From a virus: 64,000 nt of DNA. The position numbers were made by a program, and so were the translations under genes. The first letter of the stretch is position 1. Every line of letters starts with the position of its first letter. Below the pieces are notes generated by a model. That model was not told the DNA's origin. It ran no database searches and saw only the letters and a program-made list of their open reading frames with translations. Shown in pieces: positions 6,847-44,379 of this stretch. The DNA is taken from the UHGV virus genome UHGV-0371537; one strand, written 5' to 3'.

Positions 6847-8412
6847 TTACTTGTACAGGCCTGTCACGTCAATCGACTTGTGCTGGCGGTTGTACTCAGC
6901 CGTGTAATCGTCCATCACCATGTATTCACAGCATCGGATTTTGCTGGAGCCATAATCGTTGGTGATAGACACGATGTCACGCGGGTTCAGCTTACAGCGA
7001 ACGACACGCTGTCCCACAGAACCGAAACACTCCTTCAGGTAGGCCAGGGAGCACACATGCAGACCGTATGAACACAGGTCGGAGTTGTTGTCGTTCACGA
7101 ATGAGCGAGCCATCCGCACGATGGTGCCAGGCGCGTTGCTGATCGTGTTGCTGTGCTTGTCCATGTAGTTGCCGCGCACCGATTTGTAGAGGATGATGTC
7201 ACCATCGTCGTCAATTTCGATGTCGGAGTACGCCATGAACTCATAGATGCGCCCGGACTGAACCAGAGCAGCCGACGGGTTCTGGAACATTTTGTCCATA
7301 AACTTCGCCATGCGGTCCAGGTTCTTGAAGTCACCCTTCAGCATCAGCGCCAGTACGCGCTTGGCAATCGAGGTTCCAGTGATGTCATGACCAGACCAAC
7401 GAACGCGATTGTCGGTCACTTCCACCAGACCAGCAGCATACTTCGCGATGGCATCACGAGGCCGCATCAACGAGTAGGCCAGCTTCACGTCTTTGTCTTT
7501 GATCGCCTGTACGATGCGGTCATATGCTGGATGTGAAGTGGTGATCGTTTCCGGCTTGCCATCAATCGCGATTACGACACTGTCCGGCAGAATCAGAATC
7601 TGGTGTTCGTTCAGGAACACGTCCAGGTCTTTCGCGCCGAAGTCCTGCTTGGTCTTCTTGTCATCAGCCACTTCTTCAACGTCTTTGACAGCGACGGTGA
7701 ATTCCACAGAAGACAGAGCCAGGCGCAGGGTGCGACCGAGGATGGCATCGAAGTAACCAACACGGCGACGGGCATCTAAGGATCCACGGATAGGATAGGT
7801 TTCCCCGTCAACCACAACGCCGATTTCAACGTTGCTTGGAACTTTGTCCGCACCTTCCGACAGCGCGACAGAAATTTCTGCCATTTTACCGATAGCTTCA
7901 ACGCCGAAAGCACGGCTGTTGCCTTCCACTGCAGTCAGTTCAGACTTTTCAAAGAAAGCCCCTGTAAAATTGCCGCCGTCGGTGAGACACAGATACTTGT
8001 TGTGGTTCGGTAGATATGCCCCAACATACCATTCTGAGCCATCTTTGTCTTTGGCTGTTCCACCCGGCTGGACTTCGAATACTTCCTGCTCTTCCGGTTT
8101 GATAGGAGAGATCACAGTTACCTTGTTTTCCTCCTCGGTAATGCGGACCAACAGAGCTCGAGCAATGGTCTTGGCGGACACACCGTACACCTTGGCCAGG
8201 AATGCATTGCTGGCATTACCTGTCGCCGAATCCCTTTGGATATTAGCGATCTGGTCTGTTGTCAGAGATTTCAGCGATAACGGGTTGACACCGAGTTCCG
8301 TGTCTGCAACACGTTGTACAGTCGAGCGGGGTATGCCCAACAGAGTAGCAATTGCGCTCTGGCTCATGCCGTCCTTCAAATACTTGAGGATCTTTTCGTC
8401 AATCTTGTTCAT
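6847..8412 (-). CDS. rIIB: rIIB protein
   Basis: C-terminal region (HSNTISNAPGTIVRMARSFVNDNNSDLCSYGLHVCSLAYLKECFGSVGQRVVRCKLNPRDIVSI) aligns with the T4 rIIB C-terminus as I recall it; N-terminal HTH (MSQSAIATLLGIPRSTVQRV). Start moved to the internal ATG (MNKIDEK) 32 nt downstream of the rIIA stop. Confidence 0.85.
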   Translation of the reverse strand: MNKIDEKILKYLKDGMSQSAIATLLGIPRSTVQRVADTELGVNPLSLKSLTTDQIANIQRDSATGNASNAFLAKVYGVSAKTIARALLVRITEEENKVTVISPIKPEEQEVFEVQPGGTAKDKDGSEWYVGAYLPNHNKYLCLTDGGNFTGAFFEKSELTAVEGNSRAFGVEAIGKMAEISVALSEGADKVPSNVEIGVVVDGETYPIRGSLDARRRVGYFDAILGRTLRLALSSVEFTVAVKDVEEVADDKKTKQDFGAKDLDVFLNEHQILILPDSVVIAIDGKPETITTSHPAYDRIVQAIKDKDVKLAYSLMRPRDAIAKYAAGLVEVTDNRVRWSGHDITGTSIAKRVLALMLKGDFKNLDRMAKFMDKMFQNPSAALVQSGRIYEFMAYSDIEIDDDGDIILYKSVRGNYMDKHSNTISNAPGTIVRMARSFVNDNNSDLCSYGLHVCSLAYLKECFGSVGQRVVRCKLNPRDIVSITNDYGSSKIRCCEYMVMDDYTAEYNRQHKSIDVTGLYK

Positions 8413-8443
8413 CTTGTAGTTCCCACGTTGGTTAACAGGGTTA

Positions 8444-11200
8444 TTATGCCCTGATAATGGAATTTGAAATAACGTCCAAGTAATCCGAAGAATTTTCAAT
8501 CGGGTTCAGGGCGCTTGGTTTGTAGTTCTCTTTCAAGAACCGGACAACACGATGTCGCTCAATAGTCATTCGGTTATCTCGTCTTGCTTTCTTCGTTGGC
8601 GTGCGCAGAATATCAAACGGCGTAAATCCGTGAGACCGCAATACATCTGAAGCATAGCCAAAGATCTGCAGCATCTGGTGTTCTGAACGGAAGATCTTTT
8701 CGTCACGCTCGTTCGCGTACAAATTCACGTTAAGAGAACTTATCGTGTCCTGGAAATGGCTGAAGCGGCGCTTGTCATGGACCGACACCGGGGCTTTCGC
8801 CAGGCTTTGGTAATGACGTACAGTCTGCTCATCCAAGATACCGTCTACAACTTTCATTAACTTGTTGTAACGACTGACCAATTTGCCATAACGATCATCT
8901 TCAACATCACCAAACGCCTGATGAACCAGATGGCTCCCGTATTTTAATCGATCCGTCCCAAGGCGCATGCGACGATGTGATTTCAATATGCGCTGGGCGC
9001 TATCACGCTCCATCATCGGCTTCACGTTTTCCAACATGATCTTCAGAATCTCATCAATCGGAATGAAGACCTCTGGGAACTTCTTCATCATTGGCACGGA
9101 TTTACGACGAGCCAAGAAGATTCGGTTGTGAACGTTCAACATATCGCTGATGTACACTGGCTTGCCTTCATCGTCGACACTGACTGCGTGTTCATATAGA
9201 GATTTACGAATACCCCGCGCCGTCGCCGTCGTCAACGTTCTGTCCATCACCTGATGGATACACTCATGGCCAGACACCTCAATGTAGACGATGCGCTCGC
9301 CCTTGTTGATAATATCTGAGATCTGGTCGCCCGTCAGTTCTTCTTGCAGGCAGATATCGAAGTTGCTGGACGTGAACGGAAACAGGCCAGGGTCTTTGGT
9401 GACCGGAGGCGTGACATATGTCAGTTCGTTCATGAACTTAACTTCAGCAGGCTCCAGCACCGCACTCAGCCAATCGACGAACTTGTCAGCGAAGCACAGA
9501 TAATCAACCGTCGTTTCTTCTTTGCCAATCCAAGTTTCAAAGAAATCATAGAGAGCCTGAGCATTCTTGAACGCAGGGTTGTCCTTAGATTGGTTGCGCT
9601 TGGTGACATAGGATGTGTTCGGCTTGGCCACGATGACCATCGTCCCTGTATCTTTCAGCTGTTTGATCTTCAGATTACGGGCACGAACACTGTCTTCGAT
9701 CACCACAGTAACATGCTGTCCGCGATCGATCCACTTCTGGATTTCTGAAATGGTCAAAGTACCGGACTCACCCCAGTCATAGAAGATCTCCATGGAGAAC
9801 GGTGACGACAGTTCATTGAACGGCGCTGTATGGTCATAGTCACGGTCGATCTCAACAGGCAGCGGGTAACGATAATATGAATCGTGGAAGCGCTTGTCCG
9901 CCGGATATTCCTTTTCAACCATCTTACGGAAGCCACTACCGAACATTTCGCTCAGTTTTGCCTTCTCCATATACAGGGCAAGAGGACCACGATTACACGC
10001 CAGCTCCAGGTCGCGCATCTTTTCTGTCAGGATTGCATTGGCGGTTCCCTTAAACTCCTCAGAGAGCGTCTCGCGGGTGAATTCGTCATACGACAGGTCT
10101 TCACGCGACGGCGGTACGTTCAGCGAGCCGAGTTCAAAGAATGTATAGGAGCACGGGAACTTGCTCATGATAGAGGCAGTTTCCGGGTCCAGCTGGTCCA
10201 GGTCAATCGGGTATGACACACCGCCCATCACAGCATAATGGGTGTTACCCTGACCTTTCGGCTGAATGTACGTGTTGTTGACCTTGAAGTCATAGCTGAT
10301 GTCTTCCCAGCCGAAGCGGTATGAAGCGTTCTCAACAATTGGGCGGTGTTCAGGGCGCATGACGCGGCCAAGACGAACCAGCTCGTCAGAGAAAGCAGAG
10401 AAGCGAGCGTTCTTCACCGGGATCTTCACCGTCATGCCGTTGAATTCATCGGTGTCTTCTGGTTTAGGATCACGAGTTTCAAGATCTTTGGTGATCAGGT
10501 CAACCGTTGGGATGCGCTTGGCGTTCAGATACATCAGGAAGCGATGAAGTTTGCCGTCCATGCGACTTTCCACCGTGAACGAATCTGATACCGCAAATGG
10601 TGATTTGGAGCCAAGGCCGAATGCCCCGATCTGGTCATCGTCTTCTTCCTTGGTACTATGGAAGAGTGTCGTGTACAGGCCTGGGGCGCGGATGATCTCG
10701 CCATCTTCACGGCGGAAGACAAGTACCCCATTGTAGAAGCCTGGGACGCCAATGACTTCAGCTGAGTCGGGAATCTCGTCTTCCTTCACGACCATGTTGC
10801 CTTCCAACAGCACTTCATCTTCCTGAGCCGGGATAGCCTCGCCAATGATCTTCTCAAGCGGCAGGCCGATACCATAATCACGGATTTCCAGCCATGGTTC
10901 GAAGTCATCAGGTAGATGTACGACAACCTGCTTACCCTTCGGTGCCAGGTATTTGCTATGGCGGGCAGGAGGCGGAGTGAGAGGCGCGTAGTGGGATGCG
11001 ATCATGCGATGCATACGATCACGCATGCCATGGGAGTCGATGGCGTTACAGACGGTTTCACGCAGGGCTGCAGCCTCTTTATAACGATACAATGATGAGA
11101 ACAGAGTCTCAAACATCTTATCGTTCATCTTCACGTTGAACGCCTGCCCCTGAATGGAAGACGACGAGCGGATAAAGTGCTCGGACTTGCGCATTTTCAT
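8444..11200 (-). CDS. rIIA: rIIA protein (GHKL-type ATPase N-terminal domain)
   Basis: 918 aa; N-terminal LRETVCNAIDSHG resembles the rIIA / histidine-kinase-like N-box; immediately upstream of rIIB as in T4-like phages. Confidence 0.85.
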   Translation of the reverse strand: MKMRKSEHFIRSSSSIQGQAFNVKMNDKMFETLFSSLYRYKEAAALRETVCNAIDSHGMRDRMHRMIASHYAPLTPPPARHSKYLAPKGKQVVVHLPDDFEPWLEIRDYGIGLPLEKIIGEAIPAQEDEVLLEGNMVVKEDEIPDSAEVIGVPGFYNGVLVFRREDGEIIRAPGLYTTLFHSTKEEDDDQIGAFGLGSKSPFAVSDSFTVESRMDGKLHRFLMYLNAKRIPTVDLITKDLETRDPKPEDTDEFNGMTVKIPVKNARFSAFSDELVRLGRVMRPEHRPIVENASYRFGWEDISYDFKVNNTYIQPKGQGNTHYAVMGGVSYPIDLDQLDPETASIMSKFPCSYTFFELGSLNVPPSREDLSYDEFTRETLSEEFKGTANAILTEKMRDLELACNRGPLALYMEKAKLSEMFGSGFRKMVEKEYPADKRFHDSYYRYPLPVEIDRDYDHTAPFNELSSPFSMEIFYDWGESGTLTISEIQKWIDRGQHVTVVIEDSVRARNLKIKQLKDTGTMVIVAKPNTSYVTKRNQSKDNPAFKNAQALYDFFETWIGKEETTVDYLCFADKFVDWLSAVLEPAEVKFMNELTYVTPPVTKDPGLFPFTSSNFDICLQEELTGDQISDIINKGERIVYIEVSGHECIHQVMDRTLTTATARGIRKSLYEHAVSVDDEGKPVYISDMLNVHNRIFLARRKSVPMMKKFPEVFIPIDEILKIMLENVKPMMERDSAQRILKSHRRMRLGTDRLKYGSHLVHQAFGDVEDDRYGKLVSRYNKLMKVVDGILDEQTVRHYQSLAKAPVSVHDKRRFSHFQDTISSLNVNLYANERDEKIFRSEHQMLQIFGYASDVLRSHGFTPFDILRTPTKKARRDNRMTIERHRVVRFLKENYKPSALNPIENSSDYLDVISNSIIRA

Positions 11201-15685: not shown

Positions 15686-15853
15686 TTACTTTTTCTTCAG
15701 CTCATCCAGTTTGGCTTCGATTTGTTCCAGGATGTCTTTACCCTTCTGAACAATCACTTCACCGTCTTGCGCGTGTTTGCGGAAGACCAGAGCACCTGCG
15801 ATGAATCCAACAACCACACCCGGAAGTGCGTAGACCAACAGATCTTGTAACAT
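15686..15853 (-). CDS. small single-TM protein (about 56 aa), below the ORF-track length cutoff
   Basis: Hand translation: MLQDLLVYALPGVVVGFIAGALVFRKHAQDGEVIVQKGKDILEQIEAKLDELKKK; GAGGA Shine-Dalgarno-like sequence about 8 nt upstream; a TATAAATA element about 35 nt upstream. Confidence 0.3.
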   Translation of the reverse strand: MLQDLLVYALPGVVVGFIAGALVFRKHAQDGEVIVQKGKDILEQIEAKLDELKKK

Positions 15854-15889
15854 GATAATATCCTCACTTTATAGGCGAGGATATTTATA

Positions 15890-17116
15890 TCAGCGTTTCA
15901 AGAGTGCCATGAGGTTGACGCTGTTGGACTTCGGTTTATCAATCTTCGGTTTACCCAATTCTCGATACACCTGGTCAGGCTCCCAGCGCGTACCCTTTTG
16001 CAGATGCCAGATATGTAGAGGAACGCCAGTCTCAAAGAACACAGGCATCTTCCACTTCTGGACGCCTGGAACGTGCCCTGCAGGAGCCTTTTCGCACAAC
16101 AGGGTATCTGGTAGCCAGAGTGAACGGGCTTCCCAGAGCGCTGCACAGGAGTACTCCGGCCAGATGCGTTCCATGTAGTCGATCTCATCCCAGGTACGCT
16201 CGGCATCCCACCCAATGTAACGGGTATTCTTCTCACGGAAGAACTTCTTCAACCAACAAGCGCCCGAGGTTTCAAAGTTCAGGCGGTTGATGAACGTCAG
16301 GTGCCCAAACTCGGCCACGCAATCCTGGAACGCCTGCTCAAGGTCAGCCTCAAGGATGTCACACTCTTCATCCGTGATAGGGCAGCCATTTATCTTTTTC
16401 TTCCCGTGTTTGGTCACCCAATCGTCGCGGTTGGACAAGAACGCCGCGCCGTTACGGTTGGACTCACTGCCATCACGGTCACGCAACATGAAACCAGGGA
16501 CGTCGATATCCCACATGTTACCGAAGACCATGTTCAGGGCTTCCAGAAAGTTCCAGGCGCTGAGGCGGCCGAAGTATTTCCAGGACATCGCCGTGTCCCA
16601 CAACTTAGTGAACTGGTCGCCTTGGGGCTTGGTCTCCAACATCGGTCGGAATGCTTCCATCTGGGAGCGCCCAGCCAGCCAGTCAATGTAGGACTGAACA
16701 CATGGTATCATCTTCGACTTGCGATAGCGACAGTCAGTATCGAAACGCATGCGATCAAAGTTCAGGTTGTACCAGTCACAAAAGCACTGCATCTCTTCTT
16801 TAGACTGAGGAGGCACAGGGAACTCACTGTAGATCGTCCATGGACCGATGGCGTTATAACAGCAGCCCCAAAGGAACGACATCCAGATCTTGCGCTCGAT
16901 CTTCTCAAGCTGCGTGATGCCTTCAGTGACTTCAATCGCGTAGTCCATCAGGCGCATCTGCTGGTTGTGCTCTTCGGTGTAAGACAGCGCCTCCACCCAA
17001 GCCTTGAGCAGGTACATGCGATTCTCAGGCTTACGATAATCAACAGCCAGGTCAATCGGGTACTTCCATTCAGCCGGAGGCGTATAGCCTGATGGCATTT
17101 TAGAAATATGAATCAT
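15890..17116 (-). CDS. hypothetical Trp/Cys-rich protein; candidate DNA-base-modification enzyme (aGPT-Pplase-like?), assignment uncertain
   Basis: 408-aa ORF in the same operon-like run as a P-loop kinase; no catalytic motif recognised by eye. Confidence 0.55.
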   Translation of the reverse strand: MIHISKMPSGYTPPAEWKYPIDLAVDYRKPENRMYLLKAWVEALSYTEEHNQQMRLMDYAIEVTEGITQLEKIERKIWMSFLWGCCYNAIGPWTIYSEFPVPPQSKEEMQCFCDWYNLNFDRMRFDTDCRYRKSKMIPCVQSYIDWLAGRSQMEAFRPMLETKPQGDQFTKLWDTAMSWKYFGRLSAWNFLEALNMVFGNMWDIDVPGFMLRDRDGSESNRNGAAFLSNRDDWVTKHGKKKINGCPITDEECDILEADLEQAFQDCVAEFGHLTFINRLNFETSGACWLKKFFREKNTRYIGWDAERTWDEIDYMERIWPEYSCAALWEARSLWLPDTLLCEKAPAGHVPGVQKWKMPVFFETGVPLHIWHLQKGTRWEPDQVYRELGKPKIDKPKSNSVNLMALLKR

Positions 17117-17298
17117 TCAATTTTACTCCCGAGTTCGACACGGAACGCCAGATAGAAGAAAGTGGCGATCGATATAGGACAAATCACCAGGAAGGGGCGC
17201 TGCTCAACCCCTTCTGTGACCATGACGCCGACGAGCGATACCGTGAAGATAACGAACATCAGCATCATGAAGATAAAATCAACCGACCTGATCTTCAT
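17113..17298 (-). CDS. small membrane protein
   Basis: 61-aa hydrophobic ORF. Confidence 0.3.
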   Translation of the reverse strand: MKIRSVDFIFMMLMFVIFTVSLVGVMVTEGVEQRPFLVICPISIATFFYLAFRVELGSKIE

Positions 17299-17638
17299 CT
17301 TTCGCTTCCTCTTCAGGAGCCAGCTGAATGTCTTCTGGTTTCACGAACCCCATCGGACGTTCCCACATATCGATAAAGCGACGGTCGGCGGTCACGAACC
17401 ACAGACGGGCTGCGGTGTGTGTCTTACCTGAGATGAACATTTGGGCGTTGGCCTGAGTGCGGAATGGAGCCGCCTGTAGCCACTGGCCGAAGTCTTTGGA
17501 CGACGGGTTGGCATTCAGCTGGAACTGAGGGATCACGCAGTTCTTTTCAGGAATCAGGCGCACAGCAGTAATGTGCTTGGCGTTTCCGGTGTAGTCAATC
17601 GCAACAGCCACAGCATCGCGAGGGATTTGAATTTTCAT
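17279..17638 (-). CDS. hypothetical protein
   Basis: Start moved to the internal ATG (MKIQIPRDAV...) that overlaps the upstream ORF stop. Confidence 0.4.
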   Translation of the reverse strand: MKIQIPRDAVAVAIDYTGNAKHITAVRLIPEKNCVIPQFQLNANPSSKDFGQWLQAAPFRTQANAQMFISGKTHTAARLWFVTADRRFIDMWERPMGFVKPEDIQLAPEEEAKDEDQVG

Positions 17639-17838
17639 TTTGGTTCCTTGAATATTTTGTAACCAGCAGCGCCGATAGACATCACCGCGCCAATACAGTA
17701 CATCACAGTCACGTTCAACTTCTCTGAGGTTGTTAAGTCCAGAGGGGTGAAATGATAGGCTAGGGCAGCGCACATTGAAACGGCTACCATAATCAGGCCG
17801 ATGAACAACAGATAATTAGACAACCGCTTCATGATCAC
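17635..17838 (-). CDS. small membrane protein (two TM helices)
   Basis: 67 aa, LLFIGLIMVAVSMCAALAY and VMYCIGAVMSIGAAGY hydrophobic segments. Confidence 0.4.
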   Translation of the reverse strand: MIMKRLSNYLLFIGLIMVAVSMCAALAYHFTPLDLTTSEKLNVTVMYCIGAVMSIGAAGYKIFKEPK

Positions 17839-18749
17839 CCCTTCTTCATCAGGTCAAGGAGAGAGCGCGACGCTGCCTTCGGTGCTTCTGTCTGGGCACT
17901 CGCCTTGGTTTTAGTTTTGGATGCCTTCTGCGGCTTCTCAGGCACTCTGTGCGCCAAAGGATCCTCACCACCGACCTCACGGGTCATTGGGTCGGTCTCA
18001 CAGAAAGCATAGAAGTCTTTGCTGTAAAACCCATACGCTCGAGTTTCGTCCAATTGATGGTGGATAGCATTACCAACCACCCACAAAGGAGCATCGAACG
18101 GAAGGATAGCCACTTCTGAATTTGTCGGTGATTTGAACTCCTGAGTGTTGGTTTCCGGTGCTTTATACAGAATGTCCTGCCCGCTGTAGTTGTCAACCAC
18201 AGGGGTGAAGCCCAGCGCCAGCATTTCGGCCTTCGACTTCTCAAACTCCTTGGAGTAAGATTCGTTGCGAGACCAGCCGGAGTCCCCTGCTTCTTTACCA
18301 GAGCGACCACGGATGCGGGCATCGTACTGATAGCGGTCGGGGTACGCAAAGTACAGCAGCGCCAATGATTCAATCGGATAGTTCTTGAACATCCACTCAG
18401 GACGCCATTTGTCCGACAGCATGAGGGGTTCGCCCTCACACACCAGGGTGTAACCCTGAGCCAGCCAGCCTTTGACCAGGTCACGAGCGATATCACCCGA
18501 GCCTGTGGCAGCATGAATGGCGTCCATGGAAGTCCAGGAAGCCAGGCCGGATTTGTTGGACACAGTGTACTGGCCGACGAAGATCAACTTCAGCTCTTCG
18601 AATTTCAGGCCAAACGGGCGCGTCTTGTCACCAATGGTGTAGGTGAGTTCGGTAGGCTCCAGCTTAGTGCGCAGCCATTCGATGAACTGAACCACTCTCG
18701 TACCCTTGCCCGTGGCCGAGGTGCCTTTCACTACAATTATTTTAGCCAT
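17835..18749 (-). CDS. P-loop kinase (Walker A GTSATGKGT); candidate nucleotide or DNA kinase
   Basis: 304 aa with N-terminal Walker A motif IIVVKGTSATGKGT; no resemblance to T4 dNMP kinase or Pnk in my recollection. Confidence 0.6.
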   Translation of the reverse strand: MAKIIVVKGTSATGKGTRVVQFIEWLRTKLEPTELTYTIGDKTRPFGLKFEELKLIFVGQYTVSNKSGLASWTSMDAIHAATGSGDIARDLVKGWLAQGYTLVCEGEPLMLSDKWRPEWMFKNYPIESLALLYFAYPDRYQYDARIRGRSGKEAGDSGWSRNESYSKEFEKSKAEMLALGFTPVVDNYSGQDILYKAPETNTQEFKSPTNSEVAILPFDAPLWVVGNAIHHQLDETRAYGFYSKDFYAFCETDPMTREVGGEDPLAHRVPEKPQKASKTKTKASAQTEAPKAASRSLLDLMKKG

Positions 18750-19427
18750 TTAATATTCTCCAACCGAGACATGTTTTAGCCCTACCTTTCAAGAGATTCG
18801 TTATATTACCGGAAGGGAGGCCATATTGAAGTTCCATATCGCATCTTCTTAACTCAACAATGCGACCATCTTTGTGCTGCCATTTGTAAATCGTTTCATC
18901 GCGGCCAGGACCAATGTCTATCAGGCCAAGAGCATGCAGCCTCTTCCTAGTTTCCCCTCCACGCGTTTGAGATTCAGAGGAAGGTCTTGGTGGTTTGGGG
19001 ATCTTCCCTTCTGACATCAATTTGCTTATGATCTTACCCTTTCTGGCTTGTGCTTCAGGGGTGAGTCTTGGTGGAGGTTTAATCTTACCTTCAGCGATCA
19101 AACGTTTGCGGGTTGCGGCGCTCTTTGCGGATGACTCTGGCGTGGCCAATGGAGGCTCCCACCACCGACGACCATATTGTAGCACCACCCAGAGTCAAGG
19201 ATCTCCTGACAGACCAGTTCAGACTCTATCTCAAGGATAACTGATTCCTTCCCTCGGAACAGAACTTCAAACGTGAACTGGTCTTCACCATATTTCTTGA
19301 ACGCTCGTTGTAATGCAATGCTCCCCTGACCACACTTATGCTCAGCCAACCGCCTATCCGGTTCTGAAGTGACACCGATATAGAATTTATGATTGACGAG
19401 ATTCGTGATCAGGTAGAGCGACAGCAT
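18742..19427 (-). pseudogene. GIY-YIG homing endonuclease (Seg-like), disrupted by a frameshift into two ORFs (19098..19427 GIY-YIG domain; 18742..19188 NUMOD3-like repeats plus C-terminal DNA-binding region)
   Basis: ORF 19098..19427 carries LYLITNLVNHKFYIGVT...RRLAEHK (GIY-YIG); ORF 18742..19188 in another frame carries repeated GKI-x-x-PP / GKIISKL NUMOD3-like motifs; the two overlap by about 90 nt. Confidence 0.55.
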
Positions 19428-19741: not shown

Positions 19742-20521
19742 CTATCGGACGTATTGATAATGACGAATCAGGCGATTTGCCACTTCAACAATATTGTGAT
19801 TCAGAGAGTGGAAGTGGTTCTGGCCTTCTACTGGTTTAATATAAAGCATATCTTCCGAGTTCGAAAGATCCAGTTTTTCATAATTGCCCTGAGGAACAAA
19901 GATGACGAAGATGTTGTTCAGGCCGCACGGCTCGACATACTTCGGATTGTCGTCAATCAGGACATCGCCAGCCAGCAGATGCTTTTCGTCGGTGCTGACG
20001 AACCCGTTGAAGATGCCAGGGAACTTATCGTAGACAAACTGGCGTTTGCTGCGCTCATGCTCCGGCTCACATTTAGACACCGCAACGAATTCAACATTGT
20101 CGAAATCTTCAAGCAGAATCTTCTTCAGATTCACCAGGAATTCAAAAGCGCCAGGAAGCGGGTTCATCTTGGTATACAGATCAGGGCGACGCCACCAGTC
20201 CATAGGATCACGCCCTGTGGGAGCATACATCCATTTCCCAGCGAGGTACACGCGGCGTATCAACCACGCCGGATGTGCACGTTCGCGCATCAGGATAGCC
20301 AGGTCGCCAGCATGAGCCATATAGCACTCTTTGGTGATCGGCTGGAACTGGAAGGACTTTTGGTCGCCAGTTGCGAGAGCCGCCGCAGCGATGTTCTCTT
20401 CGTTGAACCACTGAACCCAAGGGGACAGGCTATCAACCAACGTCAGGTCAACATCCACCAGAACACGATACAGACCGCCGACCTTTGATTTCATATCATA
20501 GATACAAACCAGATTGTTCAT
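19742..20521 (-). CDS. HAD-superfamily phosphatase / nucleotidase (putative)
   Basis: HAD motif I VLVDVDLTLVDS near the N-terminus; start set at the ATG (MNNLV) that overlaps the upstream stop in an ATGA arrangement. Confidence 0.6.
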   Translation of the reverse strand: MNNLVCIYDMKSKVGGLYRVLVDVDLTLVDSLSPWVQWFNEENIAAAALATGDQKSFQFQPITKECYMAHAGDLAILMRERAHPAWLIRRVYLAGKWMYAPTGRDPMDWWRRPDLYTKMNPLPGAFEFLVNLKKILLEDFDNVEFVAVSKCEPEHERSKRQFVYDKFPGIFNGFVSTDEKHLLAGDVLIDDNPKYVEPCGLNNIFVIFVPQGNYEKLDLSNSEDMLYIKPVEGQNHFHSLNHNIVEVANRLIRHYQYVR

Positions 20522-20868
20522 TTGTCTTCCTCCACTTTGTCGTAACCAGTGGCAACACACTGCTCTTCAGTGCAATCAGCGTACAGAACAACAGACGCCT
20601 GCTTCACATAGGTGGTGCAGTGGTAGGTTTCGTCTTCCTGAATGGAATCGTCATAGTTGCAGACCGTCTGCAGAGGTCCAGGGGTGGTGTTGTCCAGCGC
20701 TGCATGAGCCTTGATGGTATCTTCCATCTTGGATACAGCTTGTTCGTTGGTGAACGTCGGCGCGTCAAGGTCTACAGTAGACGCAACGTCCAGAAGGGTA
20801 GAGCATGCGGTGGTAGAGAAAGCCAGAGCGCACACCAGAAGAATCTTATTGAGTTTCATTTCAATCAC
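20518..20868 (-). CDS. small secreted protein or lipoprotein
   Basis: 116 aa with signal-peptide-like N-terminus MKLNKILLVCALAFSTTACS. Confidence 0.5.
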   Translation of the reverse strand: MIEMKLNKILLVCALAFSTTACSTLLDVASTVDLDAPTFTNEQAVSKMEDTIKAHAALDNTTPGPLQTVCNYDDSIQEDETYHCTTYVKQASVVLYADCTEEQCVATGYDKVEEDK

Positions 20869-20921: not shown

Positions 20922-23921
20922 TCAACCTTTCTTCTTTTGCATCATGGCAAGAAGGTTCACACGGCGCTTGTGTGACCAGCCGACCACGTCAAGGATAGAC
21001 TGAATCGGATCAATGAAGGACTTCTCAAAGGCCGCCTGATAATCTACCCATTTGCCCAGACCAAGCTCCTCAGGGAAGAACTCAGGATATGCAAAGTAGT
21101 TCTGCCCAAACGGGTTGCCCGGCTTCAACAACACCATCTGCACCTTATCACCCGACTCAATCATCGGTAGACCCAGTTCTTCGTTCTTCTCGACCAGACG
21201 GTTGTAGCCAACACAAGCCTTGGCAGCGAAGTGAGCACCGGAGATAAACGAGCCGTCGGAGGCCACACACTTCTCTATGTCGGATACGCCGGATGCCTTG
21301 GCGATATCGTCTACGGAGAGTTTCATGTACTCCTCTTTGTAACCACTAATGAGAGTCTGTACTTCCTCTTCGGTGCCGAGTAGGATCTTCTCATAGCACT
21401 TGACAAGACGCTCACGACACCATTCCGGCGTGGTGGACTTACGGGCTTCCAGGCCTTTGAACTTAATCTTCGGCTTCTCGTACTTGATCCCCTCACTGTC
21501 GTACACAGCCATGGCATACATCTTCTTGGCTCGCCAGACAGCGGCTGACGCAATGACCTCTCGCTCCCACACCATGCGTTGTTCGAAGCCGTTCATGGTG
21601 TCACACAGAAGCTGTGCCCACTCATTGGTCTTCGGCTGGTAGTTGTCTTTGATCCATTGGTCGATATTATCAACCATAGCATGATGGTCAGTAACATCAG
21701 GCCACAACTGCTTAACAAGACGCTCAATGCAGATGTAGTTGGAGTCGGTATCACCTGCGATGACGAAGTCCTGGCCTGTTGTACCACACAGCTTGTTCAG
21801 ATAGTCATCAGTGTAACGCTTGTTCCACTTGTTGATCAGCTGACCGGATGTGGTGATGGCTTCGGCAATGTTGAGGTTGAAGTACTCTTTGAACCAGACG
21901 TTTGAGATCGCGCCATAACCTGCGTTCATCAAGATCTTCAGACCTTGCTGAAGGGTATCTTGAGCAACACCCAGGTCTTCCCACTTCTTCATCACTTCGG
22001 TCAGGGCATCAAGATCAATGTTCTTGTGCTCTTCATACCACTCTGGGTCATAGTAGCGAGACTTCATGGCAGACTCAAGATGGAAGTCGCCCTTCGACAT
22101 CTCTTTACACCAACCAGCCCACTGCTCGTATTTCAGACCCTTGGCTTTCTCCACTTTACGGTCGCTGTAGATACCGCGCATGATTTCAGACAGGAACGAC
22201 ATCTTCTCGTTGCTGAAGAACTGTACGTTCGGTGTGAAGGACACGTTGTAGCGGCGCAGGGTTTCAAAGCGGAACTCACCCAGAGCAACCAGTTCGTCAA
22301 CAACCTGCAGGCGTTCGTCAATCGCACGCAACAGCTTGTCGTGAAGGGCTTTCATCAACCGACGTTTGTGCATCGGCGTTGCCATGTTATTCATCTGAGC
22401 AGCCAGCTCTTCACACATCGCCTCAATGATTTCGCGGCGTTTGTGTTTGTCTTCAACGATGGTCTCTGGACCGAGGTTGTACTGCTGAATGATGTGAGGA
22501 TAAAGGGAGTTCAAGTCCTCTGAGAAGACCCAGAAGTAGATCCCTGGCGTGACCTCCATGACGTATGCGCCCTCAAAATCGGTCGGACCATCGTATACAC
22601 GCTGGATCTTAGGCACGATGCCCTTCTCATACAGACGATAGTAGCACATGGCCAGCCAGGGTGCCACTGTGCCAAGGCCGTCTTCATAGTTCGACTTGGT
22701 GCGGTACGCAAGGACGAACATCAGCTGGAGCAGACGCAGCTTCTGTTCGAGACGCCACACCAGCTTGACGTCCTTGATACCATATCGGGTGTGTTTGGCA
22801 TAGTCGTTGAAGTACAGGTCAAAGAGGGACTTGCTCTCACTGTAGTCCATCTTCTTCTCACCCAGCTCACAGTAAGCAATCCAATCAAGAGAGTAACGCT
22901 CACGGGTGGTGTACGTGTGCTTCTTGTAGATCTGCATGTAGTCGAGCATAGGACAGCCCACGAACTGATACGTCGTGATATCGCCCTTCTTATCGCGAAT
23001 GATACGCTTCTTGATGATACCCCAAGGACTGAGGCGCGATGTTTCGGCTTCACCCAGAACCTGGTTCATGCGCTCAACAAGATACGGGCTATCGAACGTT
23101 TCAATGTTCCAGCCTGTCCAGCCATCAAACTGACGCTGTGACCAGAAGTCAAGGAAAGATCGCAGCAGATCCTGCTCGGTGACAAACTCCTTGTACTCCA
23201 CCTCAAGTCCACCGATCTCCGCGTCTTCTGGATCGTATCTGAACTTCGCACGATCCTTCGCGCACGGCATACCCCACACCATGAACTTATTGGTCGCCAT
23301 GTCCTGAAGCTGGATGAGCGTGATGGGGAACGCTGCATTCATGTCCTGGGTGATCTTGCCATTGCTATCAATGATAGGGAACTGGTCGGTCACGTTGTTG
23401 CTGATAAAGGAACTGGGAAAGTGCTCACGGATGAAGTCATGGTTGGCCAGTACCTGCTGATGGAAGCGGCGGATGCGTGCCTCGCTACCTTTGAACGTCT
23501 GCTGCTCAATAGTCGGATGAGGGAATGGACCCTTGGTCATCTCCCCGTCTTTCCACCCAGCGGTGAACACTTCGATATCGAGGTTAGCAATATGGATGTT
23601 GGAGTAATCCGGCTCAATCTTTCCAGGGAAGCTGTGGGCGATGAACTGGTATGCATAATCGGTCTGCCCGTAAATGGCTGCACCCTGGACTTCCTTGTAC
23701 TCTTCAAGGTAGTTGTCAGCAGTGCGCATGTCAGGGAACTTCTTAGAGACCAGGGGTTCGTTGAGCAGGCCGACCTTTTCAACATTTGAATAATCAGCCG
23801 TGGGTAAATAGAGAGTGGGTTCGAATTTCTTTTTCAACAGACGGCGATTACCCATGTCATCTGCGATTCGAATCAACAGGTCATTGCCCCGGCGGGCAAC
23901 GTTCGTATAGAAGACGGTCAT
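20922..23921 (-). CDS. gp43: DNA polymerase, family B (T4 gp43-like), with 3'-5' exonuclease domain
   Basis: 999 aa; exo motif IANLDIEVF, pol motif A DLNSLYPHII, motif B KILMNAGYG, motif C VIAGDTDS. Confidence 0.92.
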   Translation of the reverse strand: MTVFYTNVARRGNDLLIRIADDMGNRRLLKKKFEPTLYLPTADYSNVEKVGLLNEPLVSKKFPDMRTADNYLEEYKEVQGAAIYGQTDYAYQFIAHSFPGKIEPDYSNIHIANLDIEVFTAGWKDGEMTKGPFPHPTIEQQTFKGSEARIRRFHQQVLANHDFIREHFPSSFISNNVTDQFPIIDSNGKITQDMNAAFPITLIQLQDMATNKFMVWGMPCAKDRAKFRYDPEDAEIGGLEVEYKEFVTEQDLLRSFLDFWSQRQFDGWTGWNIETFDSPYLVERMNQVLGEAETSRLSPWGIIKKRIIRDKKGDITTYQFVGCPMLDYMQIYKKHTYTTRERYSLDWIAYCELGEKKMDYSESKSLFDLYFNDYAKHTRYGIKDVKLVWRLEQKLRLLQLMFVLAYRTKSNYEDGLGTVAPWLAMCYYRLYEKGIVPKIQRVYDGPTDFEGAYVMEVTPGIYFWVFSEDLNSLYPHIIQQYNLGPETIVEDKHKRREIIEAMCEELAAQMNNMATPMHKRRLMKALHDKLLRAIDERLQVVDELVALGEFRFETLRRYNVSFTPNVQFFSNEKMSFLSEIMRGIYSDRKVEKAKGLKYEQWAGWCKEMSKGDFHLESAMKSRYYDPEWYEEHKNIDLDALTEVMKKWEDLGVAQDTLQQGLKILMNAGYGAISNVWFKEYFNLNIAEAITTSGQLINKWNKRYTDDYLNKLCGTTGQDFVIAGDTDSNYICIERLVKQLWPDVTDHHAMVDNIDQWIKDNYQPKTNEWAQLLCDTMNGFEQRMVWEREVIASAAVWRAKKMYAMAVYDSEGIKYEKPKIKFKGLEARKSTTPEWCRERLVKCYEKILLGTEEEVQTLISGYKEEYMKLSVDDIAKASGVSDIEKCVASDGSFISGAHFAAKACVGYNRLVEKNEELGLPMIESGDKVQMVLLKPGNPFGQNYFAYPEFFPEELGLGKWVDYQAAFEKSFIDPIQSILDVVGWSHKRRVNLLAMMQKKKG

Positions 23922-25347: not shown

Positions 25348-25365
25348 CATATGGGGTATTTAGGC
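25348..25365 (-). promoter_or_regulatory. late-promoter-like CTAAATACCCCATATGG upstream of the acidic protein gene
   Basis: Minus-strand reading GCCTAAATACCCCATATGGCTAAC about 30 nt upstream of the ATG at 25324. Confidence 0.45.
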
Positions 25366-25824
25366 TTCCCGCACTGCCAGGCCGGGTTTGTACAGAACGA
25401 TCTCACGAACCATAGGCAGACCAACACGGTCAAGAATGATCGTGGAGTCGTAGCCCTGGGAGATTAGCTCGGCGGCGTTCTCATGGATCTTACCCGGTTC
25501 GATACCAAGTTCACGCATAGCGTCTTCCCAGGCCGAAACATTATTAGAGTCGAGTTCGAGGGGCTTCTTAACACTGACGTTAAACACCAGAACATGGGGT
25601 TCACCGCTCTGGCGATAGCGAACGGCGTTCTCAGCATAGCGCTGCGCCTCTTCTTCGTTGCCTGTCAGATAGAACCCAGGTCCCATCGTACCGCAGTCAG
25701 TCTGGCCGAAGCGCTCAAAGTCGAAGACATCGAATTCTACGTTGGAGCCGTGAAAGAGGCGCATGTTACCGAACTTGGGTTCAGCCTCAGACGCCTCTTT
25801 AAGATATTCAAGAAAGGTTTTCAT
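25360..25824 (-). CDS. capsid-targeted mini protein with PARP-like (H-Y-E type) ADP-ribosyltransferase motifs
   Basis: N-terminus MKTFLEYLKE resembles the T4 internal-protein capsid targeting sequence (MKTYQEFIAE); downstream LFHGS, GPGFYLT and VREIVLY spaced like PARP H-G-S, G-x-G-I-Y-F and N-E-Y-I-V-Y; late-promoter-like CTAAATA plus inverted repeat immediately upstream. Confidence 0.6.
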   Translation of the reverse strand: MKTFLEYLKEASEAEPKFGNMRLFHGSNVEFDVFDFERFGQTDCGTMGPGFYLTGNEEEAQRYAENAVRYRQSGEPHVLVFNVSVKKPLELDSNNVSAWEDAMRELGIEPGKIHENAAELISQGYDSTIILDRVGLPMVREIVLYKPGLAVREA

Positions 25825-38710: not shown

Positions 38711-38751
38711 CTAAATACCCCTAGATGAAACGAACACATTTAGGGGTATTT
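38711..38751 (+). promoter_or_regulatory. late-promoter-like CTAAATA followed by an 11-bp inverted repeat (AAATACCCCTA / TAGGGGTATTT) upstream of tailspike 4
   Basis: Read directly in sequence; the same module recurs upstream of other late genes. Confidence 0.5.
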
Positions 38752-38754
38752 GAA

Positions 38755-41736
38755 ATGGCTAATAAACCAACACAGCCTGTTTTCCCTCTCGGTCTGGCGG
38801 CTGAAGAGCAGTCTACTTTGGCTGGTGTCCTCAACACGGGTACGATTGAGCATGGACCAGATGCTGTCCTGACTTTACCAGAGGGTAATGCCAGCGCAGG
38901 ACTCCCGTCTTCCGTTCGCTACAATGCCGACTCCGACGAATTTGAGGGCTTCTATGAAAATGGTGGATGGTTGCCGCTGGGTGGCGGTGGTATCCGCTGG
39001 GAAGTCCTTCCGCATGCCTCTACGGCAACGCTCACTGAAGGGCGAGGCTATCTCATTAATAATACCACAGGGGCATCTACAGTGGTTCTCCCTTCCCCTA
39101 CGCGTATTGGGGATTCCGTTACTATTTGTGATGCTTATGGGAAATTTGCCACTTACCCATTGACCGTGTCTCCTTCTGGAAATAATTTGTATGGCTCCAC
39201 TGAAGACATGGCTATAACAACTGATAACGTATCAGCAACGTTCACTTGGTCTGGACCTGAACAAGGTTGGATTATTACATCCGGCGTCGGTCTTGGCCAA
39301 GGTCGTGTCTACAGTCGTGAAATCTTTACAAAAATTTTGGCGTCTGAAACAAGTTCTGTCGCTCTCAATACTCCACCAACAATTGTGGACGTGTATGCTG
39401 ACGGAAAACGTCTTGCGGAATCCAAATATTCACTAGATGGGAATGTAATCACTTTCAGTCCTTCTTTGCCAGCCAACACAGAACTTCAGGTGATTGAATA
39501 TACTCCTATTCAATTGGGTAATGTCAGTGGTTCTGGTTCTTCTACGATTACCTGGGTCTATAATGGGGGTTCAGCGATTGGTGGTGAAACCGAAATCACG
39601 TTGGACGTCGTTGTTGATGATGTTCCGGCCATTGATATAAACGGAAGTCGCCAGTATAAAAATCTGGGATTCACATTCGATCCATTAACCAGTAAAATCA
39701 CTCTTGCGCAAGAACTGGAACCAGAGGATGAAGTTGTTGTAATTATCAATGGAACACCAAACATCTATAATCAAATTGATTATACTTTGCGGGAAGTTGC
39801 TCGAGCAACCAATGTTAAAGATACAGAGGTCGTTTATTTTAGTGTTGGTGCTGCGTTAAGTGGGTATAAAGTTATTTATGACAAGGAGACGCAAAGGGCT
39901 TATCCCTTGCCTGCTGATATTGTCCCTGGTACTACTGCTGTCAGTCTTAGTTCTTCCGCTATACTTGTGCATTCTGCTGGTAGTGTTGATCTGGGCGCAT
40001 TAGCTGTATCTCGTGAAGAATATGTTACATTGTCTGGGACATTTGATTCTGGTGCTGTCATCAATGTTAAAAATGAATTACTCACCCATACTGATGGAAA
40101 GTATCGTTGGGATGGTACACTTCCTAAAACCGTTGCTCCTGGCTCAACTCTTATGACAACAGGCGGCGTTGGTGTTGGCGCATGGATTAGTGTTGGTGAT
40201 GCTTCATTGAAGTCAGAATTGGCTAAACCTACAGGAGCAGGTTTTTCAGGTTTTGATAAGTCAATTGATTACGAAACTGGTACTGTTGGCAATGCGCTTA
40301 AGAAAATTATAAATGTCAACCCGGATATGTATCCATCATTACAGGATGCGATTGATGCTGCGGCAGCTTTAACAGGTTTAGAACATGCACCAAGTAGTGC
40401 TGCTAACCATCCTGACTGGCTACAACCTAACACTGTAAGCAAAGTTATCAGGCTGAATGGGAAGAAATATCCTATCAGTACGACACTACACATTCACGGA
40501 GATGTTAGCATTGATGCTGGTTTCGGTGGGGTGTACCTCACCGATGACTTCGTTGCAGACTCCTCTGGCTATGCTGTTAAATGCGATAAAGGGACGGGTA
40601 ATCAATACGCTGGGCATATCAGCAACTTATTAATTGATGCCCGTGCAAAAACTGTTAATGGGTTTAAGATATCCGATGGCTATGCTAACAAGTTAGAAGG
40701 CATTTACGTAGCCAACGTTGATGGTCATGGCATCCATATTGCTGGCGGTATGGGTGTGCACCTATTGAAGTTTTATGCTGTTGGTGTATTAAAACCAACT
40801 AATCCGCTCAGCACAGCCCACATTGTTGAAGGTAGCGATCATCAGGTTAGCATGGGTGAAGGTCGTTATTTCCGATTTGGTACCTGGGTTCGTGGTGGTG
40901 GTAATAACAGAATTGGTAAGGTGCACAACTGGGGCATGTATGACGATACAGTCACCGACCAGAACTCAAGGATGAAATGCTGCTTTGTTGTACAGAACTC
41001 AATAAACAATTCCTTCAATCAATGTTTTGCAGATTCTCCATCAAAATGGGACTACACGAAAGCTAATTTAGATCCTGTAGATGGTTATATTAACGGCGGG
41101 ATTGGTTTTTTTATTGATGGTGGAGCCACCGGTAATACGTTCTCTCAATGCCAGACGTTTGTGAATATGAATGCGTTTAATGACGCAGGGTTATCTGCAT
41201 ATGCGGCATCACTAATGCCATTCGCCGTTGGCAGTATCAATTGCTCATTCATTGAGTGTGAAAACTCAAACTCACCAGCATGGGTGGCAAGACTGATAAC
41301 TCATATTTACTCTGTGGATCAGGCATTTACTAACATACTCGCAGCTAAGAATTTTGTTGGTATAGAGTATGATATGGTTTGCAATGGTACAATTTTCAGG
41401 AAAAATGTTGGAGTTCCTGTATTGGTAAGAAATTCAAAGTTCGAGACGCCAACAGCAAGTTATGCGCCTAACTTTTCAGACGCATCTTACATCGCAGCTA
41501 CAGTTACAGGAGATGTAACAATAACACCAGCAGTATTAACAAATACACTAATTGGTTATGTTGAGGTTCTTTTGGCTGTCTATTCAACAACATCTAAAAC
41601 AATAACATTTGGTGCAAATGTTATATTAGCAAGTAGTACCCCATCTTTGACAGCAGCTGGAACACAAGTTTTTAGGTTGTCAACAACTGATGGAGGAACG
41701 ACTTGGTTCTGTAAGTTCGAGAGTGCTTACCCGTAA
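38755..41736 (+). CDS. tailspike / tail fibre protein, paralogue 4 (extended N-terminal anchor region plus shared module plus distinct C-terminal domain)
   Basis: Contains the about 150-aa module shared by all four paralogues (VVYFSVGAALSGYKVIYDKETQRAYPLP...GKYRWDGTLPKTV...GAWISVG); Gly/Asn-rich C-terminal region; start set to the ATG after the inverted repeat (ORF track begins at 38725). Confidence 0.75.
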   Translation: MANKPTQPVFPLGLAAEEQSTLAGVLNTGTIEHGPDAVLTLPEGNASAGLPSSVRYNADSDEFEGFYENGGWLPLGGGGIRWEVLPHASTATLTEGRGYLINNTTGASTVVLPSPTRIGDSVTICDAYGKFATYPLTVSPSGNNLYGSTEDMAITTDNVSATFTWSGPEQGWIITSGVGLGQGRVYSREIFTKILASETSSVALNTPPTIVDVYADGKRLAESKYSLDGNVITFSPSLPANTELQVIEYTPIQLGNVSGSGSSTITWVYNGGSAIGGETEITLDVVVDDVPAIDINGSRQYKNLGFTFDPLTSKITLAQELEPEDEVVVIINGTPNIYNQIDYTLREVARATNVKDTEVVYFSVGAALSGYKVIYDKETQRAYPLPADIVPGTTAVSLSSSAILVHSAGSVDLGALAVSREEYVTLSGTFDSGAVINVKNELLTHTDGKYRWDGTLPKTVAPGSTLMTTGGVGVGAWISVGDASLKSELAKPTGAGFSGFDKSIDYETGTVGNALKKIINVNPDMYPSLQDAIDAAAALTGLEHAPSSAANHPDWLQPNTVSKVIRLNGKKYPISTTLHIHGDVSIDAGFGGVYLTDDFVADSSGYAVKCDKGTGNQYAGHISNLLIDARAKTVNGFKISDGYANKLEGIYVANVDGHGIHIAGGMGVHLLKFYAVGVLKPTNPLSTAHIVEGSDHQVSMGEGRYFRFGTWVRGGGNNRIGKVHNWGMYDDTVTDQNSRMKCCFVVQNSINNSFNQCFADSPSKWDYTKANLDPVDGYINGGIGFFIDGGATGNTFSQCQTFVNMNAFNDAGLSAYAASLMPFAVGSINCSFIECENSNSPAWVARLITHIYSVDQAFTNILAAKNFVGIEYDMVCNGTIFRKNVGVPVLVRNSKFETPTASYAPNFSDASYIAATVTGDVTITPAVLTNTLIGYVEVLLAVYSTTSKTITFGANVILASSTPSLTAAGTQVFRLSTTDGGTTWFCKFESAYP

Positions 41737-44336: not shown

Positions 44337-44373
44337 CTAAATACCCCATATTGGCAAATCCTCTATGGGGTAT
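44337..44373 (+). promoter_or_regulatory. late-promoter-like CTAAATA plus inverted repeat upstream of tailspike 2
   Basis: CTAAATACCCCATATTGG-N-TATGGGGTAT, as upstream of tailspike 3. Confidence 0.5.
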
Positions 44374-44379
44374 CTTCAA

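Follow-up and report, generated by a model that had tools for sequence, protein, structure and literature searches.

The system closest to the genes described here is that of Salmonella phage ViI, for which gp243, gp247 and gp226 have together been reconstituted in vitro, converting 5-hydroxymethyl-2'-deoxyuridine (5-hmdU) in DNA to 5-(2-aminoethoxy)methyl-2'-deoxyuridine (5-NeOmdU) (Lee et al. 2018 PNAS, 2021 NAR). Purified gp243, like gp67, phosphorylates 5-hmdU in DNA; purified gp247 joins L-serine, via its hydroxyl, to the phosphorylated base to give O-serinyl-thymidine (O-serinyl-T), an activity that is lost when the conserved cysteine or a nearby glutamate is mutated; and gp226 is a pyridoxal phosphate (PLP)-dependent decarboxylase that takes O-serinyl-T to 5-NeOmdU, with Lys92 proposed as the internal-aldimine lysine (PMC8989533). 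Here we consider a stretch of 64,000 nucleotides from the virus genome UHGV-0371537, referred to below as the window. The region around positions 15,890 to 18,749 appears to encode the DNA-level steps of the ViI-type 5-NeOmdU pathway, a reading to which we give a probability of about 93%. A preliminary description, made from the letters and open reading frames (ORFs) of the same DNA, had proposed that candidate thymidine-hypermodification genes lie here, and its interpretation is supported; the system itself was already known.

Several relatives of ViI have been characterised at the level of their DNA. In virion DNA of ViI, CBA6, CBA120 and vibriophage 1.255.O a 301-Da nucleoside replaces ∼40% of T, and a 2018 list of ViI-like phages that encode a 5-HMUDK, and for which 5-NeOmdU was predicted, included two members of the genus Agtrevirus, Ag3 and SKML-39 (PMC5889632). 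The same 301-Da nucleoside is present at ∼16% in the Ackermannviridae phage phiHS2, and a 2024 review describes the pathway genes as conserved throughout the Ackermannviridae. The donor used by the amino acid:DNA transferases (ADDT) differs between phages, being glycine for M6 and PaMx11, serine for ViI and putrescine for PhiW-14 (PMC8989533). In PUGT, the crystallised PaMx11 enzyme, Glu243 and Thr244 bind the metal, and Cys247 is the residue that attacks the base.

The window contains the following counterparts of the three ViI enzymes and their catalytic motifs.

17835..18749, minus strand: 5-hmdU DNA kinase of clade 2 (HMUD2), 304 residues, orthologue of ViI gp243; Pfam PF18747, E 8.6e-158.

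18699..18725, minus strand: Walker A P-loop GTSATGKGT, kinase residues 9-17, read from the sequence.

15890..17116, minus strand: amino acid:DNA transferase (ADDT, formerly aGPT-Pplase clade 2), 408 residues, orthologue of ViI gp247; Pfam PF18724, E 4.7e-60.

16256..16273, minus strand: catalytic motif E282-T283-S-G-A-C287 (ETSGAC) of the transferase.

25864..27057, minus strand: PLP-dependent decarboxylase, 397 residues, orthologue of ViI gp226 (93% identity), 7.1 kb from the kinase.

The preliminary description had singled out a P-loop kinase that resembled neither the T4 deoxynucleoside monophosphate (dNMP) kinase nor polynucleotide kinase, and had called for profile searches of this protein and of its 408-residue companion. 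The Pfam search gives HMUD2 ("5-hmdU DNA kinase 2") as the sole family for the 304-residue protein (524.6 bits; cut-off 25), residues 1-303 covering positions 1-298 of the 298-position model; no guanylate-kinase, dNMP-kinase or polynucleotide-kinase family was found. The protein is 85% identical over 304 residues to ViI gp243 (Vi01_196, YP_004327565) and has the same position among its neighbours as in ViI. Its N-terminus, MAKIIVVKGTSATGKGT, includes the P-loop, of which Gly9, Gly14, Lys15 and Thr17 are invariant in an alignment with ViI gp243, ViI gp67, M6 gp54 and PaMx11 gp49. We infer that this kinase phosphorylates 5-hmdU within DNA in an ATP-dependent manner. Sequence searches of the PDB with the kinase and with the transferase gave no match.

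For the 408-residue protein, in which Trp and Cys are abundant (21 Trp, 5.1%, and 12 Cys, 2.9%) as had been noticed from its translation, residues 49-296 match positions 2-231 of the 232-position ADDT model with a score of 203.6 bits (cut-off 26.2). It is 90% identical to the serine:DNA transferase, ViI gp247 (YP_004327568), and this identity is the sole basis on which L-serine, joined through its hydroxyl, is taken to be its probable donor. Glu282, Thr283 and Cys287 are identical in ViI gp247 and invariant in an alignment of 29 homologues, with 39-89% identity, drawn from a large protein database. Through the Pfam model coordinates, in which residue 255 of PaMx11 gp46 and residue 296 of the window protein both fall at position 231, they correspond to Glu243, Thr244 and Cys247 of PUGT. 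An alternative assignment of the catalytic cysteine to Cys341, given by a MAFFT alignment with ViI gp247, M6 gp51 and PaMx11 gp46, was rejected in favour of Cys287 on the Pfam coordinates and the 29-homologue alignment; neither Cys341 nor Cys266 is conserved in the latter.

The relationship to PUGT is also apparent in the predicted structure. An AlphaFold model of the transferase, built from the 29-homologue alignment, is all-helical, as is the DNA-glycosylase-like fold of PUGT, with a predicted local distance difference test score (pLDDT) of 90.4, and its top match in the PDB by Foldseek is PUGT (PaMx11 gp46, entry 8z2n), with a probability of 1.00 and a target-normalised template modelling (TM) score of 0.59. 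The OGG and EndoIII DNA glycosylases trail far behind in the same search, with low probability. PaMx11 gp46 and M6 gp51 share with the window transferase the ADDT family, the E-T-x-x-C motif and the all-helical fold. They differ from it in being only 22-27% identical by column in the multiple alignment (pairwise BLASTP of the transferase against the PaMx11 and M6 enzymes gave no significant match), in using a glycine donor, and in being ∼120 residues shorter, with neither the extensions at the N- and C-termini nor the tail described below; their phages encode no sliding clamp.

The third enzyme, a PLP enzyme that had been placed some 7 kb from the kinase and is indeed found there, is 93% identical to ViI gp226 (YP_004327553), with an annotated N-terminus that is 27 residues shorter. 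The Schiff-base lysine is kept: ViI Lys92 aligns with Lys65 of the window protein, in the sequence GINGSKLRQ (nucleotides 26863-26865). From its sequence, we infer that this enzyme converts O-serinyl-T to 5-NeOmdU.

Because of the 85-93% identity to the ViI orthologues, the conserved catalytic residues and the synteny, the DNA-level reactions can be proposed for the window phage as follows. A thymidylate-synthase-like dUMP hydroxymethylase and nucleotide kinases, expected from relatives to lie outside the window, would supply 5-hmdUTP, and the phage family-B polymerase would place 5-hmdU in the position of T. The HMUD2 kinase would then use the gamma-phosphate of ATP to phosphorylate the 5-hydroxymethyl group of DNA-borne 5-hmdU, forming 5-phosphomethyl-dU. 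The transferase would flip this base out, Cys287 would add to C6 and the phosphate would depart, leaving an exocyclic C5 methylene that the side-chain hydroxyl of free L-serine would attack to form 5-O-serinyl-thymidine. Decarboxylation of the serine moiety by the 397-residue PLP enzyme would complete 5-NeOmdU, a bulky base with an amino group, which would render the DNA refractory to many restriction endonucleases.

How might these enzymes reach DNA that has just been replicated? A possible answer is offered by their C-termini, which resemble that of the phage DNA polymerase, and this observation may matter more than the identification of the pathway. The features concerned in the window are these.

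20922..23921, minus strand: family-B (T4 gp43-type) DNA polymerase, with Pfam DNA_pol_B and DNA_pol_B_exo1 domains.

20925-20963, minus strand: polymerase C-terminal tail RVNLLAMMQKKKG (residues 987-999), against which the other tails are compared.

17838..17864, minus strand: kinase C-terminal tail SLLDLMKKG (residues 296-304), preceded by a Lys/Ala/Pro/Thr-rich linker; candidate clamp-binding motif.

15893..15922, minus strand: transferase C-terminal tail SVNLMALLKR (residues 399-408), preceded by a linker modelled with low confidence; candidate clamp-binding motif.

The three proteins end in …HKRRVNLLAMMQKKKG (polymerase), …KSNSVNLMALLKR (transferase) and …AASRSLLDLMKKG (kinase). With the polymerase tail as query against 386 six-frame segments of the window, the transferase ranked first and the kinase was tied for second. 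The transferase tail is conserved among the 29 homologues and the linker before it is variable; in the model pLDDT is ∼50-70 over the last ∼28 residues, with block means of 68 (residues 381-390), 51 (391-400) and 50 (401-408) and with residues 395-399 below 50. Similar tails occur in five proteins of ViI.

ViI DNA polymerase: …RRVNLLSMMGKKG.

ViI gp247 (transferase): …TSVNLMSLLKR.

ViI gp243 (kinase 2): …SSVSLLGLMRKA.

ViI gp160: …GSVNLLDRLKKPE.

ViI orf00053 (70 residues; Vi01_049c), 30355-30567, minus strand: …DKVNLLSLMRK.

When C-termini were compared, no such tail was found on ViI gp67, gp226, the ThyA-like enzyme or about twenty further replication proteins. Across the six-frame segments of ViI (110,524 residues) there are six matches to the strict pattern V[NS]L[LM]..[LM], and five of these fall in the final 16 residues of genuine genes. 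A repeat at the level of DNA was considered as the source of the tails and rejected; the tails are encoded by different codons and followed by unrelated DNA, so the conservation is that of the protein. Moreover, the tail co-varies with that of the cognate polymerase in six lineages, namely the window and ViI together with the following five.

Vibrio D528-like contig: polymerase …ARKLW; HMUD2 …TKKLW; ADDT …TRKLW; gp160/HMUDK_hel …TKRLW.

Metagenomic scaffold L013: polymerase …TSALW; two HMUD2 …NDLW and …SSLW; ADDT …NALW; HMUDK_hel …NSLW.

Contig L014, in which Tet_JBP replaces the ThyA-like enzyme: polymerase …VSLEDFFS; kinase …ILEFFDIFH; ADDT …LSLFDF.

Pseudomonas phage Cygsa01: polymerase …ERKASVMDFFS; HMUD2 …KNVFDLF; ADDT …NDLMGFFQ; HMUDK_hel …KSVLDLF; the pathway genes adjoin those of the clamp and clamp loader.

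PhiW-14, the classic putrescinyl-thymine phage: polymerase …VAKLGAFFV; gp37 kinase …HGLGGFFKG; gp109 ADDT …TTGLGSFFR; gp72 (gp160/HMUDK_hel) …TTLAQFAP; gp33 homologue …TTSLGGFAAT.

A precedent for such peptides exists in T4, where the highly similar C-termini of gp43, gp33 and gp55 are sliding-clamp-binding motifs and the gp43 tail, 889-EKASLDFLFG-898, binds gp45. The likeness to the T4 motifs, which also include an internal loop of DNA ligase, lies in a short hydrophobic C-terminal peptide that follows a flexible, variable linker and is common to the polymerase and other DNA-tracking proteins. Since the kinase and transferase tails resemble that of the polymerase itself, these two enzymes are probably recruited to the phage sliding clamp, whose gene is outside the window, on newly replicated DNA. 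We consider it likely that the first enzymes to act on new DNA, that is HMUD2 (or the single kinase of PhiW-14), the transferase and gp160/HMUDK_hel, are sliding-clamp clients, that modification is coupled to the replication fork, and that no such tether holds HMUD1, the enzymes of the nucleotide pool or the PLP decarboxylase, which acts later. A comparable arrangement is known for DNMT1, a base-modifying enzyme that is tethered to the replication clamp PCNA through a PIP-box and promptly modifies new DNA; this is an analogy only, as its proteins and chemistry are unrelated to those of the phage enzymes.

The tails could instead serve some other purpose, such as binding to a different hub protein, degradation or localisation, and this explanation, although clearly the less likely one, keeps appreciable weight. 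Clamp binding is read here from sequence alone; the putative clients are base-modifying enzymes, which are not among the known phage clamp clients; and the enterobacterial tail is hydrophobic and basic (…NLLxxLKK), whereas that of T4 is hydrophobic and acidic. The ViI homologues of gp33 and gp55 have no clear match to the motif at their C-termini, and in Cygsa01 a crude ranking without gaps brought nothing but gp160 and a small ORF close to the top, the kinase and ADDT ranking lower, which weakens the evidence from the tails. What favours the clamp is the change of the tail in step with the cognate gp43-type polymerase C-terminus across the six lineages, and the resemblance of the Cygsa01 polymerase tail, ERKASVMDFFS, to residues 889-898 of T4 gp43, which bind gp45. 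The gp33 homologue of PhiW-14 carries the tail, and in T4 the gp33 C-terminus is a proven clamp-binding motif. No such tails are present in the phages that do not themselves encode a clamp, namely M6, PaMx11 and L016, a small TARA contig with ParB, Tet_JBP and ADDT.

If the tails do bind the clamp, they would provide a mechanism for aiming post-replicative hypermodification at nascent phage DNA, which could help explain why modification is partial (∼16-40% of T). They would offer a first clue to what gp160 does, and base-modifying enzymes would join the toolbelt of the phage sliding clamp. No mention of a link between the clamp and hypermodification, aGPT-Pplase or 5-HMUDK was found in the two primary papers, the PUGT paper or the full-text literature searched, the coverage of which was incomplete. 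A small ORF of Cygsa01 (109399-109734, minus strand, up to 111 residues) has the tail …STNSLLDFF, and its product and ViI orf00053 are candidates for further clamp-binding factors on the strength of these peptides.

Several points weigh against the assignment of the window genes to the 5-NeOmdU pathway. The Pfam match of the 397-residue enzyme to PALP, the profile of PLP fold-type II enzymes (E 1.5e-7), scores 31.5 bits and falls short of the gathering cut-off of 35; the Foldseek E-value of the transferase for PUGT is weak, at 0.11; PHROG 4409, to which the kinase belongs, is labelled "guanylate kinase", a name also used in the RefSeq records of relatives; and tblastn with the ViI proteins finds neither the dUMP hydroxymethylase nor the HMUD1 kinase nor a gp160 homologue in the window. 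Given the absence of these three from the window, it is from relatives that the pathway is judged to be complete in this genome. In ViI the ThyA-like gene, gp67 (Pfam HMUDK_HMUD1) and gp160 (Pfam HMUDK_hel) map to 37-39 kb and 87-88 kb, beyond the part of the genome that is equivalent to the window, and in Salmonella phage P46FS4 the homologues of gp67, the ThyA-like enzyme and gp160 occupy syntenic places, with 88%, 78% and 84% identity to ViI.

A second alternative retains the same enzyme families but supposes a different final base, made with another amino acid or by a halt at O-serinyl-T. It draws on the variation of the donor within the ADDT family noted above, and on the 10% of positions at which the window transferase differs from gp247. 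We regard it as very improbable: the transferase invariant columns are all unchanged, the window also encodes the cognate decarboxylase (93% identity, lysine kept), and the 301-Da nucleoside is made even by ViI-like phages that are more distant, vibriophage 1.255.O among them (PMC5889632). Least credible of all is the idea that the 304-residue protein is a nucleotide-pool kinase, for example a guanylate kinase, and the 408-residue protein unrelated to base modification, since the name that suggests it is automated (the paralogue gp67 is likewise mislabelled, as "terminase small subunit"), the only Pfam match is to HMUD2 over the full length, the 85%-identical ViI gp243 phosphorylates 5-hmdU in DNA in vitro (PMC8989533), and the companion protein is an ADDT with its catalytic Cys and Glu intact. 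In public annotation the transferase is "hypothetical".

The assignment to the 5-NeOmdU pathway is thus preferred. As a finding it is not new, because the genes are orthologues of characterised enzymes and the genus had already been predicted to carry the modification. It places the phage in a lineage of the Ackermannviridae for which 5-NeOmdU in the DNA is expected; this base would confer resistance to many restriction enzymes, could affect cloning and may influence sensitivity to restriction-modification and bacteriophage exclusion (BREX)-type defences.

The window can be placed, by its similarity to database records, with an Agtrevirus-like phage of the Ackermannviridae. DNA matching the region is present in 275 phage records, nearly all of them, a handful excepted, being Ackermannviridae of enterobacteria; this and the profile E-values of 8.6e-158 and 4.7e-60 show that the kinase and transferase are not chance ORFs. 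The closest record for the region is P46FS4 (Agtrevirus), with 93.7% DNA identity, followed by EspM4VN, Ag3 and SKML-39. The Agtrevirus relatives P46FS4, Ag3, SKML-39, EspM4VN, ChubbyThor and MK-13 have the same genes, with 90-94.5% DNA identity over the region, and the stretch from the polymerase to the PLP enzyme is 93-94.5% identical to Ag3, ChubbyThor, MK-13 and P46FS4. As no record in the phage collection reaches at least 95% identity across these stretches, the window phage is probably a distinct species or isolate. ViI belongs to a different genus, with ∼80% DNA identity to the window phage, and its likeness consists of the orthologues at 85, 90 and 93% identity, the gene order around the polymerase, the catalytic residues and the C-terminal tails.

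The window is colinear with ViI in inverted orientation, running from ∼106 kb through the genome ends (157 kb/1) to ∼10.7 kb. Homologues of rIIA (918 residues, PHROG 3661) and rIIB, at 6847-11200 on the minus strand, mark the conventional start of Ackermannviridae genome maps; their presence inside the window means that it spans the conventional genome ends. The preliminary description had also remarked on an architecture of four tailspikes like that of ViI, and four consecutive large ORFs, each with a Tail_spike_N domain, are present at 38.7-49.3 kb.

38725-41736, 41839-43788, 44365-47022 and 47080-49347: four consecutive tailspike ORFs.

This tailspike block has close relatives for only 38% of its length, at 95-96% identity.

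The kinase and transferase genes lie, as had been stated, in one minus-strand run, which extends from ∼20868 down to 15686 with stops and starts overlapping. Beyond the 3' end of the polymerase gene the order is a DUF7292 protein, the NT5C/HAD deoxyribonucleotidase homologue, a DUF7254 protein, a SegD-like homing endonuclease and the kinase; then follow ORFs of 67, 119 and 61 residues, the 408-residue transferase and an ORF of 55 residues. Two features of this order are found in the window and not in ViI: the frameshifted SegD-like endonuclease upstream of the kinase, and the extra 61-residue membrane ORF upstream of the transferase. The neighbouring genes and the candidate boundaries of the operon are listed here.

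20925-20896: promoter-like site, candidate operon boundary.

19742..20521, minus strand: HAD-superfamily NT5C-type 5'(3')-deoxyribonucleotidase homologue (ViI orf00239); Pfam NT5C, E 4.5e-8.

18742..19427, minus strand: SegD-like GIY-YIG homing endonuclease gene, directly upstream of the kinase; GIY-YIG Pfam match on the N-terminal ORF.

17635..17838, minus strand: 67-residue predicted membrane protein, homologue of ViI orf00244, from comparison with ViI and P46FS4.

17279..17638, minus strand: 119-residue protein, homologue of ViI orf00245 (PHROG 4163), from comparison with ViI orf00245 and P46FS4 gp187.

17113..17298, minus strand: 61-residue predicted membrane protein, present in P46FS4 (gp186) and absent from ViI.

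15686..15853, minus strand: 55-residue protein, homologue of ViI orf00248, the last gene of the run.

15671-15650: terminator-like hairpin after the gene of the 55-residue protein, candidate operon boundary.

Since promoter-like sites in the scan of the operon showed no enrichment over shuffled sequences, these boundaries are only suggestive. The T4-type late-promoter consensus TATAAATA is found at 15882-15889 on the minus strand, directly past the transferase stop and upstream of the 55-residue ORF; with only two copies in the window it shows no excess over chance.

The homing endonuclease is not part of the pathway. It occupies the exact junction between the kinase and the orf00240 homologue, and its stop codon overlaps the start of the kinase gene; ViI has no insertion at this point. 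Alignment with the intact 687-nucleotide genes of P46FS4 and RPN242 reveals a 1-nucleotide deletion near 19157, which splits the endonuclease gene into ORFs of 109 and 148 residues, and it may be either a pseudogene or the product of a sequencing error. A 1-nucleotide deletion is also seen in the P46FS4 record at ∼12,930, in the Walker A codons (GGG-AAA) of the kinase-2 gene, for which RefSeq annotates only a 231-residue, N-terminally truncated product; the window copy (18700-18725) is intact. The P46FS4 deletion may be a sequencing error, or the presence of a kinase 1 of the gp67 type may make kinase 2 dispensable.

The HAD phosphatase that had been noted near the kinase is the NT5C homologue. 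Its likely start is Met14, at 20521, rather than the GTG at 20560, and in RPN242 it is annotated as a deoxyribonucleotidase. It is kept beside the modification genes in ViI, RPN242, L012 and L014. By analogy with other 5-hmU phages and uracil-DNA phages, it could act as a dTMP phosphatase that lowers the dTTP pool. A different arrangement is seen in L014 (8616-11734) and in L016 (7860-11077), where the transferase adjoins a Tet_JBP dioxygenase, with no ThyA-like hydroxymethylase; beside Tet_JBP there is a Ploopntkinase3-type kinase in L014 and ParB in L016. These neighbours agree with the published idea that T-dioxygenases can make 5-hmU on DNA.

Among the small proteins of the run, the 119-residue protein has its true start at Met46 of the listed 164-residue ORF, and the PHROG match spans residues 46-160 of that ORF. 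In ViI, orf00245 directly overlaps gp247, with no 61-residue ORF between them. The 67-residue protein has no Pfam match; it and the 61-residue protein are thus two small predicted membrane proteins embedded in the modification operon. Finally, a 154-residue gene directly downstream of the PLP decarboxylase (25360-25824, minus strand) matches Pfam ART-PolyVal, the ADP-ribosyltransferase of polyvalent proteins, above the cut-off (E 2.2e-10).

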